Assembly (NCBI GenBank): GCA_041690595.1
Contig: JAWLHB010000010.1
Coordinates: 1 to 64,000, forward strand
Direction: 5' to 3'
DNA from: Lentisphaeria bacterium
Lineage (GTDB): Bacteria; Verrucomicrobiota; Lentisphaeria; JABSQK01; JAWLHB01
Length of the DNA stretch: 64,000 bases
In this document: positions 53,260 to 58,991 of the stretch, one piece after another
Position numbering within the stretch: position 1 is the stretch's first letter
Layout: each line of letters opens with the position of its first letter
The notes under the pieces: model-generated
The model's database searches: none
Seen by the model: only the letters and a program-made list of their open reading frames with translations
Told to the model about the DNA's origin: nothing
Position numbers and translations under genes: made by a program

Positions 53260-54783
53260 ATGATCAAATTCCCGATCCGCAGGATCATACTCCTCTTCGT
53301 CTGCCTTGGTCCACTGTTCTTGGGGGCGGAAGTCCAGCTCACCATTCTCCACACTACCGATATTCATGCCCACCTTGCTGATCATGTCTCCTCGGAAAAT
53401 GGGGGCGACTGGCTCCGTCTGGCGACGCTTCTGCGCCGCGAACGGGCTGAAGCCGGCCCCGGCAACATGCTGCTCATCGACACCGGCGATACCATCCAGG
53501 GAACACTTGTGGGTACACTATCACAGGGGGCGGTGGCGCTACCCGTGCTGGCCGCGCTCGAGGTGGATGCCTGGGTAATCGGCAATCACGAGTTGGATTT
53601 CGGCTTGCAGCGCCTTCGGGAACTGACGAAGCTGGTGCAGGTGCCTGTGCTGGCCGGCAATCTGACGCTGGAAAACGGACGTCCGCTACCGGCATACCGC
53701 ATCTGCGAAAAGGGTGGGGCGCGTATTGCGATCATCGGCATGACCAGCGGTTACCTCCACAACTGGTTCACGGGCCCCGATTACGACGGCTTCACCGTCG
53801 AAGACGCCACTCTGGCCATCGAGCGAATCATGCCGGAAGTGATGCGCCACAAGCCGGACATGATCGTGCTGGGCATTCACCAGGGATTCCAATACCGCGA
53901 CACGCGCGGTGTAAACGAGGTCAGAAGCATTGCTTACCGCTTCCCGCAGATCGACCTGATCCTTGGCGCACATACCCATCAGCAGTATGGCGGTCAGCGG
54001 ATCGGGGGAAGCTGGTACGTACAGCCAGCGGAGCACGCCGCCGAGTACGCGCGCATTCAGGTCCGCATCGACATTCGCCGGAAAAAAGTCCTGGACATCT
54101 CCTCCACTCTGGTGAAGGTGCCCGGCGACACACCACGCGATCCCCTGGCCGAGGAAGCTGCCGCCGCCTGGCTGCAAGTGGCTGACCGGGAGGCGATACG
54201 CACCATTGCCACCCCGGCCAGAGCCGTCACCAGCAAGGGGACTCCAGGCATCGACTGTCAGATCAGCGACATGGTTTGCCGTGCCATGATGAAGCAAACC
54301 GGCGCCGTGGCCGCGCTCCATGGCGTTCTGGCCAGACTCTACTGGCCGGCAGGAAAGCCCGTCACCCGGGGCGATCTCTTTCGGGCAATGCCATACGAGA
54401 ACAAGGTCTGCGTGGTGAACCTGACCCGCCTGGAACTGGCGGACGTAATCGGCGAGCAATTGGCGCTGCGCCAGGCTTACACGTATAACGGGATCCATGG
54501 CGTGCATGTCGTAGCTGACCGGGAAAGCGGACGCGTGATCAACGTGACTCCTGCCCACGGAGTGTGGCCGGAGGATGAACGGCGCCCGGTTGCCATAACC
54601 AGTTACAATGCCGCTGGAGGCGGGGGACGGTATCCTCGGTTGCGGGAATTGTGCGCTCGCCCGGAGAGCGGGCTGCAGGTGGAGCCCAGCGATGCCAGAG
54701 AGATTGTTCGGCGGTACATGGAAGAGAACCGCGAGTGGACCGCGCCACCGACTCGCTGGATCACCTGGCAGCCTGGAGGGTAG
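53260..54783 (+). CDS. Bifunctional metallophosphatase / 5'-nucleotidase
   Basis: LHTTDIH, DTGDTIQG, GNHELD, GAHTH, MPYEN; signal peptide. Confidence 0.9.
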   Translation: MIKFPIRRIILLFVCLGPLFLGAEVQLTILHTTDIHAHLADHVSSENGGDWLRLATLLRRERAEAGPGNMLLIDTGDTIQGTLVGTLSQGAVALPVLAALEVDAWVIGNHELDFGLQRLRELTKLVQVPVLAGNLTLENGRPLPAYRICEKGGARIAIIGMTSGYLHNWFTGPDYDGFTVEDATLAIERIMPEVMRHKPDMIVLGIHQGFQYRDTRGVNEVRSIAYRFPQIDLILGAHTHQQYGGQRIGGSWYVQPAEHAAEYARIQVRIDIRRKKVLDISSTLVKVPGDTPRDPLAEEAAAAWLQVADREAIRTIATPARAVTSKGTPGIDCQISDMVCRAMMKQTGAVAALHGVLARLYWPAGKPVTRGDLFRAMPYENKVCVVNLTRLELADVIGEQLALRQAYTYNGIHGVHVVADRESGRVINVTPAHGVWPEDERRPVAITSYNAAGGGGRYPRLRELCARPESGLQVEPSDAREIVRRYMEENREWTAPPTRWITWQPGG

Positions 54784-54792
54784 GGCGGCTGA

Positions 54793-55824
54793 CTATCCCG
54801 GATGTGGAAAGCCTTCGTGGCGAATGCGCCTGCCGACCTCCAGCAGGGTCTTTTCGTCACCCAGATCTATCGCTCCATCGGGCAGGGGGCCGGTGTTGAG
54901 TAGCAGATTGCCCCCCTTGCCCACGGATTGACGCAACATGGTCCAGACTTCTTCCGGGGAACGGCCGGGCATGCCGGCAGTATAACCCCATCCACCGCCA
55001 AGATGGCCACAAAGCTCCCACGGACGGTCCTCCCTGTCAGGCGGCTCGAAATCCCAGTTCATCTCGGGGGCCAGATAATCCTCCGTACCGGTGAGCCCAT
55101 CCTTGTAGGCGACCAGCACCTGCGGCTGGAGCACCCGCAGATGATCGTAGAGCTCCTGGCATCTGAAGGCCTGCCAGTCGCCGGCTCGTGGTGTGCCGAT
55201 CCCGTCCAGCCAGATCGAAGCGACTGGCCCATACTGAGTCAGCAACTCCGTGAGCTGCTCCCTCACGAAATCGAGGTAAATCCTCAGGTTGTGAGCGGGA
55301 GTGACTGCGTAAGCTGCCTCCGGCGGATCATACTGGGGCCGCGCCGTCGGACCGTACTTATCGTTGTTCGGAGCATGCGGATGCCGCCAGTCGCGACCAT
55401 GTGAGTAGTAGAGGCAGAGTCCCAGTGCCCGTTCTTCGCAGGCCTCGGCCAGCGCCCATACCAAGTCTCGGCCGCACGGCGCGACGACGGAATTGAACGT
55501 GGTCTGGGCCGTATCCCACAGGCAGAAGGAGTCGTGATGGCGCGTGGTCAGGCAGATGTATTTCATCTCCGCGCGTACAGCCAGATCGGCAATCGCTTCC
55601 GCATCGAAGGCATCCGCCAGGAAGTACTGCTGCAGCGTGGCGTAATCCGCCACTCGGATCTTTTCGCGGTACTGAACCCATTCATGCCGGCCCAGCAGCG
55701 AATACAGCCCGTAGTGAATGAACATCCCGTACTTGGCGTCTCTCAGCCACTGACGACAGGCCTGACGCGGATCCTCTTTGTATTGAGTGGCGTAGTTCTC
55801 CAGGAAGGAAGGAATGCTGCTCAT
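54793..55824 (-). CDS. Alpha-L-fucosidase (GH29), no signal peptide
   Basis: AKYGMFIHYGLYS, TTRHHDSFCLW, IWLDG, GGNLLLNTGP. Confidence 0.9.
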   Translation of the reverse strand: MSSIPSFLENYATQYKEDPRQACRQWLRDAKYGMFIHYGLYSLLGRHEWVQYREKIRVADYATLQQYFLADAFDAEAIADLAVRAEMKYICLTTRHHDSFCLWDTAQTTFNSVVAPCGRDLVWALAEACEERALGLCLYYSHGRDWRHPHAPNNDKYGPTARPQYDPPEAAYAVTPAHNLRIYLDFVREQLTELLTQYGPVASIWLDGIGTPRAGDWQAFRCQELYDHLRVLQPQVLVAYKDGLTGTEDYLAPEMNWDFEPPDREDRPWELCGHLGGGWGYTAGMPGRSPEEVWTMLRQSVGKGGNLLLNTGPLPDGAIDLGDEKTLLEVGRRIRHEGFPHPG

Positions 55825-55982
55825 GGGGTGCGCCCTCCGTGTCCAGCGTTGCAGAGAAGGATCTTCATGAAGATACCCGATGCACGCCGATTTCGCAATC
55901 TTCACGCCGCCAACTCTCCATTTCGCTCTCCCGGACCACCTTCCCACCACCGACCCGATTCAGCCTGAAAGTTCCCGACAGC

Positions 55983-56039
55983 TTATCAACAGGTCGCAGG
56001 GAAAACTTATCAACAATTTCCATAAGTCCATTATCCACA
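55983..56039 (+). promoter_or_regulatory. Three co-oriented DnaA-box-like 9-mers at 24-bp period
   Basis: TTATCAACA 55983, TTATCAACA 56007, TTATCCACA 56031 (perfect consensus). Confidence 0.7.
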
Positions 56040-56080
56040 GTCACTTATGGATTTTCCATCCGAATTACGGTGACTACCCT

Positions 56081-56108
56081 CGTCGACATAACATATATTA
56101 TGCGACGT
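56081..56108 (-). other. dif-like XerC/XerD recombination site
   Basis: Minus strand ACGTCGCATAA-TATATG-TTATGTCGACG has the 11-6-11 architecture; E. coli dif is GGTGCGCATAA-TGTATA-TTATGTTAAAT. Intergenic and AT-rich. Confidence 0.75.
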
Positions 56109-56225
56109 GACAGTAGAGCCTTTCTTGCCCCGGTTTTCATTCTGCTTCGATTCATGTACTTTATGAAGTGCGATCACCGATTCGGCGGAGTATGCAAATC
56201 TTGCGAGTTCTACAGGAGGGCTGGA

Positions 56226-57137
56226 ATGGCTAAGTTGCTGACACGGGTCATGGGGACGCTGGTTCCGGGTGTCTATGCGGCTGTGATAATTCTTTTAACA
56301 AGTTGTGTGGGGTCGGGCGTATCCAGTCAGCATCTGGCGGAACTATCTCTCGGCAACGAACGGCCGACGCATTACGCGCTGCTCTATTATCCGTACTCGG
56401 TCTCGCTGACGCACATTGCGGCCATGCCGCATCCGCTTTATTCCGGCTGGCCGCAGCATCGCATGCGCCAGGATCTGCGCCGGATCAGGGAAACCGGAAC
56501 CGATCTGCTCCTGCTGCATACCGATGCAGCCAAGGTGTTGCAGGATCGAGATCTGGCTCAGCTTTACACGGCATTCATCGGGTATGCGGCTGAAGCCGGG
56601 GTCGATTGTGCGCTTTATCTGGACTGCGAAAAGCTTGACGACGGTCAGGCAACAGCGCTTGTCCAATGGCTGCTGGCGCTGAACCTGAACAACGCTTCCG
56701 CCTACTGGAAGGATGCCGGGCGGCCTATCGTGGTGCTCGTCAATGCGGCTGAGATCGAGCAGATTCGCCATATCGGCTTCGATTTCCGCCGCTGGGAATG
56801 GCAGCCTGCCTCACGACTGGCACGTGTGTCGGGTCTCTCCATGCCAATGCTTGCCGATCAAGGGCGCGTCTTGCGTGTGCGGGCCGGCTGGATCAGAAAC
56901 GGCGCGAGCAGCCCCGACGACGTCAAGTGGGCCGTGAAACGCCGCAACGGAGATACCATCTTCGAGGCGGTCACCGTCGGTGCGCGGTTGAATCCGCGGA
57001 TACTGGTGGTAGACAGCTGGAATGACTATGCGCACGGCAGCTTTGTCGAACCGAACAGCCTGGATCAGGAGCAGGCGCTGATGCGGTTGCGCGAGGCCAT
57101 CCGCGATGCAAGGACTCCGATAGCGGAGACGCCTTGA
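56226..57137 (+). CDS. Putative lipoprotein with GH99/GH71-like fold
   Basis: Lipobox-like LTSC, YYPY, GRPIV, SWNDYAHGSFVEP; AGGAGG RBS. Confidence 0.65.
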   Translation: MAKLLTRVMGTLVPGVYAAVIILLTSCVGSGVSSQHLAELSLGNERPTHYALLYYPYSVSLTHIAAMPHPLYSGWPQHRMRQDLRRIRETGTDLLLLHTDAAKVLQDRDLAQLYTAFIGYAAEAGVDCALYLDCEKLDDGQATALVQWLLALNLNNASAYWKDAGRPIVVLVNAAEIEQIRHIGFDFRRWEWQPASRLARVSGLSMPMLADQGRVLRVRAGWIRNGASSPDDVKWAVKRRNGDTIFEAVTVGARLNPRILVVDSWNDYAHGSFVEPNSLDQEQALMRLREAIRDARTPIAETP

Positions 57138-57233
57138 TTTGCCACCATCGAGGTTATAGAATAGGTGCTTCATACAGACGCATTACGGCAATCGGCATCA
57201 GGCTATTCTCAGGTTAATGGATCATTCCGCCCC

Positions 57234-58991
57234 ATGAAACGACTACTGATCGCGGGCACCGAAGCTGCCGGAAGAAGCTTTCACGAGCAACTTCTCAAAC
57301 TCGACTTCGACCTCACTTACCTCCCGGATCCCCTGCGTGTGGTGGGGCTGGTGCGGGAAGGACGGGTGGATGTCCTCATCATCCCCCCCTACCCTTACTG
57401 TGCTCAGCCGGAGTTGATTCTGCGCGAATGCGGCGATCATAATTGCGAGACATCCGTCCTGCTATTTGCTGCGTCGCAATGCAGCGACACGCAGCTTTCT
57501 CCCGCGATTCGGGCACTGGCGTACCAGGTGCTGCTGCCGGAAACCCCCGCGGAAGAGATCGTGGCCGCTGTGGTCCGCGCGTCGGAACGGACTTCGCTGC
57601 TGGGCAATGTCGACTATCTCAAGCAGCAGGCCACTGGCTTGCAGCTCAGCCTGGCTCGGGCTCGGGATATCCGCCAGGCACTATATCGACCGATCGGAAG
57701 CCGTGCCGCCGCCGGCTTCGCCATGGAAGGTTTCGATATCGGTGTTTTCGAGCGGCCGGCAGAGGGTGCGGGCGGTGATTTCAATGGCTGGTTCGTCTTG
57801 CCCGGAAACAAGCTGGTCGTATACCTTGGCGACGCGGCAGGTCATGATCTGGCGGCCACGGTCATCCGCGATTATGTGACCCATGAGCTGGATCTGATGT
57901 ATGCGCGCGAAAGCTGGGAGCTGCTGGGAGATCCGGCCCGACTGCTCGCCCATCTGAATGCCCTCATGCACCCAGCGCGCCAGGTTCACGCCTCCATGCT
58001 CTACATGGTCATCGATCAGTCATCGCACAAGGTCACGTACGCTTCGGCCGGCCATACCCCCTTTGTTGCCCGCACAGCCCAGTGTGACATCAATCTTTAC
58101 TTCAGCAATTCCGTCATGCTGGGCATGGAAGCACAGCCATCCTACAAGACCGCCCAGATTCTCCTCGACCATTATACCCACTTGACCCTATACAGCGACG
58201 GCTTGCTCGACGCACGCGAGCTGGTTCGACGCGAACAGCGTCATGGCTACGATATGGAGGACCTCAAGTACTTCCAGCGCTTCGCCACCGAAGATCCGCG
58301 ACCTTTCGCCCAGATGATCTTCCGGCATTTCCTCCAGATCTCCGGCGTCAATCGACCCCAGACCGACGATATCTCCATCATGGTCATTCGCACCGGTATC
58401 TCTTACAATCAACAACCCTTCGAGGAAGAGCTGCCGGCCATCCCAAGCAGCAGTCAGCAGATGGCTGACGATCTACTCGGCATCAACCGCAGCATCGGTG
58501 CGGAAGCCGGCTACGATGCCGAGAAGGCCGCCTACTACGTGGCGATTCATGGCAAGGCGGACTATGGCATCGCCAACGCCTTGATGCCGAAGATCGAACA
58601 GGCACTGCAGCAGGGCATGCGAACCCTGATTCTCGACTGCTTTGACATGACCGCGCTCGACAGCTGCTTCATGGGAACCTTGCAGGAGTTGAATATCCTC
58701 TGCCGGGCGAACGACATCAGGCTGCACATCAGCATCGGCAAGCGCGAGTTCATCGACAACCTCAAAGAGCTATACCTGACTGAGGTTGTGCAGCAGAGTT
58801 CGCCGGAGCGTTGGGAATGGCACAAACAGCTGCGCCCCATTTGTCGCGAACGCAATCTGGACAGCCGTCGCGCCGCGGAACACCTCTTCCGTACACACGA
58901 ACTCCTGGCCGAACAGAGTCCGCAGAACCGGCAGCGTTTCGAGCAGCTTCTGGCCTTGCTCCAGGCCGAACTCAGGAAGTTCGATGATTGA
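57234..58991 (+). CDS. Receiver-like / SpoIIE (PP2C) phosphatase / STAS fusion protein
   Basis: GGDF, GDAAGHD, YASAGH, YSDGL, DDISI; C-terminal STAS LILDC..M..LDSCFMG. Confidence 0.85.
   Translation: MKRLLIAGTEAAGRSFHEQLLKLDFDLTYLPDPLRVVGLVREGRVDVLIIPPYPYCAQPELILRECGDHNCETSVLLFAASQCSDTQLSPAIRALAYQVLLPETPAEEIVAAVVRASERTSLLGNVDYLKQQATGLQLSLARARDIRQALYRPIGSRAAAGFAMEGFDIGVFERPAEGAGGDFNGWFVLPGNKLVVYLGDAAGHDLAATVIRDYVTHELDLMYARESWELLGDPARLLAHLNALMHPARQVHASMLYMVIDQSSHKVTYASAGHTPFVARTAQCDINLYFSNSVMLGMEAQPSYKTAQILLDHYTHLTLYSDGLLDARELVRREQRHGYDMEDLKYFQRFATEDPRPFAQMIFRHFLQISGVNRPQTDDISIMVIRTGISYNQQPFEEELPAIPSSSQQMADDLLGINRSIGAEAGYDAEKAAYYVAIHGKADYGIANALMPKIEQALQQGMRTLILDCFDMTALDSCFMGTLQELNILCRANDIRLHISIGKREFIDNLKELYLTEVVQQSSPERWEWHKQLRPICRERNLDSRRAAEHLFRTHELLAEQSPQNRQRFEQLLALLQAELRKFDD

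Follow-up and report, generated by a model that had tools for sequence, protein, structure and literature searches.

The 28-bp dif site of this Lentisphaeria bacterium is part of a larger element: together with a phased IHF-like palindrome and candidate DnaA boxes on its XerD side it makes up what, judged by comparison among relatives, is a real, class-conserved cis element. By its place in relatives, this module sits at the replication terminus and not at oriC. The window analysed here is a stretch of 64,000 nucleotides (positions 1-64000 of contig C10) from a genome of 8.1 Mb in 99 contigs, 97% complete. The original prediction, made from the window, had drawn attention to the dif-like site and to three phased boxes nearby, and had left a choice between a DnaA titration or timing locus at the terminus, an origin next to dif and the remnant of a Xer-integrated replicon; the IHF-like palindrome and the fixed spacing to dif had been overlooked.

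There is good evidence that the site at 56081-56108 is the dif toward which FtsK is steered. The predicted 28-bp 11-6-11 Xer site is borne out, its core having a single exact match in all 99 contigs (8.1 Mb); a scan for a better dif elsewhere found none, the runner-up carrying five mismatches on a different contig. The core is present in 45 of 61 relatives. XerC and XerD are encoded outside the window (326 bits each, slightly below the equivalog cut-offs and above the PRK00283 cut-off), and an FtsK with a gamma domain is encoded elsewhere in the genome. The five KOPS (GGGNAGGG) nearest to dif on its left are all on the plus strand and the six nearest on its right all on the minus strand. Since KOPS orientation tracks local GC skew genome-wide, this dependence was modelled before convergence was tested, and the skew-corrected convergence peaks at C10:56,000, with 15 of 18 motifs within 30 kb pointing inwards vs 8.3 expected (z 3.2, rank 1 of 1727 positions), which is good evidence, from the source genome alone, for an FtsK-targeted dif. 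The arm names in Table 1 are those we take from likeness to the E. coli type of dif. The site thus shares with the E. coli-type XerCD-dif system with FtsK and KOPS (Kono et al. 2011, PMC3025954; Castillo et al. 2017, PMC5357621) a single intergenic 28-bp 11-6-11 copy, encoded XerC, XerD and FtsK, converging KOPS and, in relatives, a terminus position, and differs from it by an extra conserved extension of ~100 bp with IHF-like and DnaA-type sites. In the accessible parts of these and related sources, accessory sequences are described for plasmid Xer sites only, and an Azospirillum preprint reports that no conserved accessory sequence was found next to dif.

Table 1. Features of the module and its flanks in the window. 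Offsets (+) run toward the XerD arm, with the G of the core sequence GCATAA as their starting point.
Feature	Position	Strand	Remarks
Alpha-L-fucosidase gene	54793..55824	-	Flank only; PF01120, E 1.6e-60
Possible weak partner box, offset +123, uncertain	55972..55980	+	Degenerate 9-mer, 11 bp beyond the +112 box; relatives show a minor peak at +123 to +126
Candidate DnaA box, offset +112, first of tandem pair	55983..55991	+	Relatives peak at +112 to +115; 22.5 bits, rank 4 genome-wide
Candidate DnaA box, class type TTAT(C/T)AACA, offset +88	56007..56015	+	Box at +88 to +90 in 9/15 genomes of own order
25-bp palindrome, IHF-like	56023..56047	.	Consensus TAA-N4-TTGAT-W-ATCAA-N4-TTA; two overlapping IHF-consensus half-sites, degenerate in this copy
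Perfect E. coli-type DnaA box, offset +64, at palindrome centre	56031..56039	+	Probably lineage-specific or incidental
Chromosomal dif	56081..56108	-	28-bp 11-6-11 site; intergenic
XerD arm of dif	56081-56091	-	Arm name presumed from E. coli-type likeness
6-bp dif spacer	56092-56097	-	Between XerC and XerD arms
XerC arm of dif	56098-56108	-	Arm name presumed from E. coli-type likeness
Hypothetical gene	56226..57137	+	Flank only; GH99/GH71-like from language-model features; Atlas look-alikes 0.93-0.96, a lead only
Nearest KOPS	54778, 54880, 57387 (span 54778..57394)	+, +, -	All point at dif

In the gap between the divergent flanking genes (55825-56225), the 9-mers TTATCAACA (at 55983 and 56007) and TTATCCACA (at 56031) follow one another on one strand in 24-bp steps, the last of them 41 bp from dif, which agrees with the ~40 bp first noted. 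The positions and the strand of the three-box array stand. Taken singly, boxes are no more frequent across the window than chance predicts (15 matches allowing one mismatch vs 17.8 expected); it is their clustering that is in excess, ~0.005 same-strand triples within 60 bp being expected genome-wide by a simple Poisson estimate. The exact 24-bp period of three boxes fares less well: the box at 56031 coincides with the palindrome's degenerate centre, and its offset, +64, does not recur in 57 loci, so the period amounts to two conserved boxes plus a coincidence. The only other clusters of three boxes within 300 bp are two GC-rich intergenic repeats of ~100-130 bp (C61:36765-36970 and C66:26026-26190), and an exact same-strand box pair within 30 bp is found solely at dif, both in the source genome and in the relative G004. 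The palindrome copy scores 9.7 bits with a matrix built without it, and its better half-site agrees with the IHF consensus at 6/9 positions. The gap had been called AT-rich; it is indeed below the genome in GC content, but only moderately so (gap 50%, module 41%, genome ~61%). Rfam gave no match across 55000-57200, the gene at 56226..57137 has no match in Pfam or NCBIfam, and, in line with the original statement, none of the 56 ORFs scanned (of 226 in the window) is a dnaA, xer, par or rep gene. Both flanking frames (55839-57137 on the plus strand and 54793-55950 on the minus strand) remain open upstream of their likely starts, the plus frame running without a stop through boxes and dif, probably by chance given the GC content. 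At the contig end (112-1713), the window carries an IS21-type transposase fragment and IstB.

Of 351 genomes of the class, 189 have an exact dif core followed, after 60-90 bases, by an exact class-type box; the misses under this strict pattern include incomplete genomes and one-base variants. The reversed pattern gave 0 matches, a weak control because a reversed dif does not exist; mirror controls are the meaningful ones. Among the difs of 60 relatives taken without selection (leaving out G017, not a chromosomal-type site, G055, at a contig end, and G042), a box with at most one mismatch at +85 to +130, on the same side and in the same orientation, accompanies 15/15 in the own order and 18/20 in other families, 33/35 in total, vs 1, 1 and 1 of 35 in the mirror controls. 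In families f9 and f12 it accompanies 0/10. The module is therefore absent at 10/10 difs in these two families and at 2/20 of the others, where Xer works without it, and four genomes of the order (G001, G009, G011 and G013) keep boxes at shifted offsets with a poor palindrome. All these relatives are non-independent samples, and XerD and DnaA trees leave the deep forks open and are not a basis for counting losses. In an alignment of XerD, compared by eye, nothing obvious set lineages that have the module apart from those that lack it.

In 57 aligned loci, most of them selected on one box, box offsets peak at +88/89, +100-102, +112-115 and +123-126, with a best period of 11.5-12 bp (R=0.72), and 93 boxes lie on the XerD side in a single orientation vs 5, 2 and 2 in three mirror controls. 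The palindrome has a symmetry of r=0.92 (across related loci). Of the 47 loci in which it scores, with a matrix trained on the same loci, 44 have its first base at +56/57; its best half-site agrees with the IHF consensus at a mean of 6.9/9 positions (controls 3.4). It is also a common element, with 52 sites of at least 10 bits in the source genome. In 24 loci, identity is 0.84 for dif, 0.95 for the first box (which was selected for), 0.55 for the second box and 0.45 for the palindrome, and drops to 0.33 and 0.29 in the spacers vs 0.27-0.28 in the flanks. Spacer length is conserved and spacer sequence is not, the offsets of the putative protein sites being fixed to a base or two. The comparison with relatives that had been suggested thus upholds dif, the boxes at 55983 and 56007 and the overall layout, but not the box at 56031.

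Some relatives carry more than one site. Three genomes of family f9 (G025, G028 and G034) have two chromosomal-type difs each, on separate large contigs and without the module, consistent with two chromosomes. In G035, a second dif-like site away from the terminus (C1:114332, L027) is accompanied by IHF-like sequence without boxes; it adjoins a helix-turn-helix-like ORF and possibly belongs to a Xer-using mobile element.

What could bind these sites is suggested by where else they occur. With a class box-pair matrix built without the source genome, the dnaA promoter ranks first in that genome (31.6 bits) and a dif box fourth; the E. coli motif finds no boxes at dnaA, while the class matrix has the dnaA promoter as its top match. 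The class-type motif is visible upstream of dnaA in several relatives, and class-type 9-mers dominate the origin regions upstream of dnaN. The DNA-binding domain of the class DnaA is intact and reads RNHAT where those of E. coli and B. subtilis read RDHTT, a change that could explain the variant class box; these recognition residues hardly vary within the class, which leaves no covariation with box type to follow. Two proteins of the HU/IHF family are encoded, one of them nearer IHF than HU, although it scores below the curated IHF cut-offs. As to other controls of DnaA, Hda was not found in any of five class genomes searched (5/5) and ParB (E<=1e-25) in only 2 of 41; two common DnaA controls are thus missing from these searches, which leaves room for another. 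Lineages without the module are also without Hda and ParB, and in the same 5 and 41 genomes loss of the module does not track gain of either protein. No canonical parS was found in the source genome or G035, and elsewhere matches were no better than in the control.

Further strong class-type box pairs in the source genome lie at C29:45720, after a tmk-holB-like gene pair, and at C1:150889, upstream of a pyruvate oxidoreductase-like gene, these genes being named by eye from their N-termini. In G035, a converging box pair around an IHF-like stretch (C1:673,164-673,330, L194) could be an analogue of datA or DARS, many GC-rich repeats carry DnaA-box-like 9-mers, with arrays of perfect boxes at a ~128-bp period, and a perfect box lies ~530 bp upstream of two of the three 16S genes.

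The position of the module on the chromosome is read most clearly in relatives. In 7/7 of those with long contigs (two of them not closed) it lies 45-50% of the genome away from dnaN, and 13 of 14 rRNA and rplB genes in relatives point toward it, one rplB pointing away. In G035, skew and KOPS both turn from plus to minus at the dif with the module, near 5.10 Mb, dnaA being at neither pole; in sampled 20-kb stretches the same turn of skew is found at the corresponding dif of G004 and G164, and weakly in G129. The source genome is different. Around dif its skew is close to zero, passing gradually from minus to plus, so that the GC-skew check that had been proposed gives a terminus in relatives and, in the source genome, a mosaic of 74 switches. 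Its third-position skew is strand-real, opposite-strand neighbours correlating at -0.67. Among sequencing runs, none of RNA was listed, and four DNA runs with small shares yielded scattered short pieces, with no coverage gradient and nothing on the module.

The mosaic itself is marked: third-position skew reaches ~0.6 and flips every ~70 kb, with 41 plus-to-minus and 33 minus-to-plus switches over 5.3 Mb (28 contigs of at least 100 kb), and the flips rarely lie near repeats (5% and 18% vs 8% background). Sampled relatives mostly have two replichores. A heavy history of inversions, dispersed initiation or assembly error would each be a reading of it.

The oriC of the class apparently lies upstream of dnaN (dnaN-recF in G035), far from dnaA (loci L264-L293, L314-L318 and L189), and a candidate in the source genome is found at C18:37997-38151 (L265). 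The basal unwinding system (PMC10721633, PMC10225481) is the point of reference for it. Origin regions upstream of dnaN carry boxes, then the same palindrome (p<=0.05 in 10/24), then a box, a GC run and DnaA-trios. The strict box-GC-trio pattern, hand-made after origins had been inspected, is present in 9/36 of these regions (shuffles: mean 0.9, maximum 4) vs 0/57 dif flanks, and no period-3 signal follows the box; a looser unwinding-element pattern does not discriminate (18/36 dnaN regions, 31/57 dif flanks, shuffles mean 10). Origin and module have in common the DnaA box type, the 25-bp palindrome and 11-bp box steps, but beyond the palindrome the origin has the box-GC-trio unwinding element where the module has dif, and the register from box to palindrome is off by ~7 bp. 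By its sequence, the module would correspond to the left part of the origin kit, dif replacing the unwinding element. The idea of an origin next to dif is not supported, given this separate origin, opposite dif in relatives. The wider possibility that dif carries an origin, be it a second or backup one that finishes or re-fires the terminus or the principal one of a chromosome with unusual replication, draws on the shared kit, on an AT-rich dif that could melt, on the skew of the source genome and on unidirectional Pseudoalteromonas chromids in which dif lies 4-27 kb from ori (PMC7858055). Set against the distance from dnaN, the gene orientations, the skew switches, the confinement of the strict trio pattern to dnaN-upstream regions and the source genome's own oriC candidate, it is very unlikely.

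Nor do the neighbouring genes account for the boxes. On another reading, a DnaA operator for an adjacent gene, or what is left of a Xer-integrated element, lies by dif accidentally. DnaA-type pairs do occur in source-genome promoters, and the minus strand has a weak sigma-70-like match across part of the palindrome (2 such matches vs 0.5 expected). However, box-side genes vary: among 41 scanned of 49 called, the commonest is miaA (6), followed by gltX, gidA, GH2 and IGPS (2 each), 26 point away from the boxes and 23 toward them, and miaA presents its 3' end to the boxes. An integrated element would need a second dif-like site and element genes, and neither was found, the ORFs scanned nearby including no rep or integrase gene. 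Dif is single and lacks a partner attachment site, its neighbours are unrelated housekeeping genes and the module is conserved throughout the class, so that the replicon remnant originally envisaged is not supported; the neighbour survey largely refutes operator and remnant alike, and we consider both highly improbable.

Sequence comparison establishes the identity of dif, its terminus position in relatives, the conservation and fixed spacing of the predicted sites and a box type that oriC and the dnaA promoter share with the module. We infer that DnaA and the IHF-like protein bind the module, and propose the following scheme. An IHF-type bend ~60 bp from the dif centre would be followed by two or three co-oriented DnaA boxes in helical phase, and a U-turn at the palindrome may fold the DnaA array back onto XerD-bound dif, because in the common layout the outer box lies ~49 bp and the XerD arm ~51 bp from the palindrome centre. 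It is from the XerD side that FtsK brings about activation, and FtsK is able to displace proteins bound to DNA. The DnaA-IHF complex would stand in the path along which FtsK reaches XerD, and its most likely job would be to couple the end of the cycle to DnaA control. Either FtsK/XerCD action at division would clear or remodel the DnaA complex, or the complex would gate Xer activation in the way of the accessory proteins of the plasmid sites cer and psi; between clearing of DnaA and gating of Xer, the data make no distinction. A titration site needs no fixed distance, whereas the module keeps one and lies on the XerD side throughout, a spacing that speaks for a role beyond titration; of the titration or timing locus first proposed, the place and the parts are supported. 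That a DnaA-IHF complex in register with XerCD-dif and in the path of FtsK links dimer resolution to DnaA control seems to us about as probable as its opposite. Against such coupling, fixed spacing could serve DnaA-IHF geometry together with selection against insertions beside dif, the two families and four order genomes mentioned above do without the module or its usual offsets, the palindrome is common in the genome, the IHF-like protein falls short of the IHF cut-offs and the sister class has no box enrichment. A bolder version, which we put forward tentatively and think more doubtful, would have the initiator work directly with the chromosome-dimer resolvase: a DnaA filament, bent by IHF, would dock on XerCD-dif and be cleared by FtsK at division, licensing the next initiation (or the DnaA-ATP level would gate Xer), as a cis-encoded switch from termination to initiation, ancestral in Lentisphaeria and present or re-evolved in scattered lineages.

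Should the coupling hold, it would bear on a long-open question, namely how the next initiation is tied to the end of the previous cycle in bacteria, the known DnaA-control sites (datA, DARS and DnaA-box clusters, or DBCs) not being linked to the resolution machinery. An element of 130 bp whose geometry is fixed across the class would offer a direct handle on Xer activity vs initiation timing. As far as open-access and preprint full text shows, the module would also be the first instance of accessory sites conserved at a chromosomal dif, a search there having found no description of DnaA boxes at a set distance from one. There is a practical warning too: since the only exact same-strand pair within 30 bp sits at dif in the source genome and G004, origin finders keyed to DnaA-box clusters may pick the terminus in Lentisphaeria.

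The main rival to coupling is a DnaA sink or ATP-hydrolysis site of the datA or DBC kind at the last-replicated locus, for which dif would only mark the place, with no contact between the two; being replicated last, the copy number of such a sink would double at termination. In datA itself, two essential boxes flank the IHF site. E. coli datA is made up of co-oriented DnaA boxes and a single IHF site (PMC5742627), and datA and the B. subtilis DnaA-box clusters share with the module co-oriented boxes and one IHF site in non-coding DNA that is not an origin. A B. subtilis cluster near terC partly suppresses over-initiation, although the terC-proximal insertion was weaker than oriC-proximal ones (both from PMC3245932), and the missing Hda and rare ParB would suit an extra sink. 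Yet datA is oriC-proximal (94.6 vs 84.6 min) and not tied to dif, where the module is opposite dnaN and phase-locked to dif; relative to the datA layout, the conserved boxes of the module all lie on the side of the palindrome away from dif, hence on one side of the bend only. datA stimulates DnaA-ATP hydrolysis, an activity that would be putative for the module. Two or three boxes at the locus of lowest dosage would make a weak sink, and neither a distance to dif that holds to ~1 bp nor the constant XerD side is explained by one. We regard the sink as unlikely, but the most serious of the alternatives. Appreciably less probable is that another protein occupies the boxes, or that DnaA acts there as a structural tether, organising or anchoring the terminus in the manner of matS/MatP or of decatenase loading near dif. 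Fixed geometry suits any protein scaffold, the class 9-mer differs from the E. coli box, and in one genus the dif 9-mers differ from the genus's own origin 9-mers; but the same motif recurs at the dnaA promoter and at dnaN-upstream origins, the class DnaA keeps an intact DNA-binding domain with altered recognition residues, and a canonical box stands at a like position in other lineages.

Among known systems, the plasmid sites cer (PepA and ArgR) and psi (PepA and ArcA) come closest to the proposed coupling, with a Xer core, accessory sites on one side for unrelated regulatory or DNA-bending proteins and fixed spacing. They span ~180 bp on plasmids, the module ~100 bp on a chromosome, FtsK-polarised and with DnaA and the IHF-like protein as putative factors; cer and psi accessory proteins are required for recombination or direct it, a control that is putative for the module. 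E. coli DARS1 and DARS2 likewise fit three DnaA boxes into a short length of non-coding DNA at a distance from oriC, and DARS2 uses IHF, but in the DARS core box I is opposed to boxes II and III, whereas all boxes of the module are co-oriented. The iss region of T5-like phages (bioRxiv 10.1101/866236, Davison) has paired DnaA boxes, including TTATCAACA and TTATTAACA variants, in a conserved non-origin region, but it belongs to a phage terminal repeat with an inverted-repeat layout, and the word dif is absent from the text of that paper.

Beyond the class, the strict pattern is found in 7 of 267 genomes of the phylum. Across all GTDB species, dif with a canonical box gave 44 matches vs roughly 8-20 by chance; 29 of these resemble true difs, and around them lie 23 additional boxes on the XerD side and 3 on the other. 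Nine loci from Verrucomicrobia and Kiritimatiellia (by title) have the canonical box at exactly +95 and four from other groups at +100, while rumen Alphaproteobacteria, Bacilli and a Gallionella have several boxes each by dif. Between one and four canonical boxes accompany dif on its XerD side at L222, L242, L248, L230, L240, L262, L225, L243, L232, L221, L224, L227 and L235, loci that belong, by title, to unrelated lineages, namely Alphaproteobacteria, Bacilli/Clostridium, Gallionella, Chlamydiae, Theseobacter and Marinamargulisbacteria. The distribution is patchy, since 30 unselected difs of the sister class show no box enrichment (11 in the same orientation, 12 opposite, 10 on the other side).

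The sister class (Kiritimatiellia-titled; L319-L348 and L200-L206) has a motif of its own beside dif. The NrdR box is described as C-A-AT-T-G at six named positions (PMC13584703). Of the 30 unselected difs, 14 have an NrdR-box-like motif, at an offset of exactly +41. NrdR normally needs two boxes and these difs carry a single one, which stands where the IHF-like palindrome would be.
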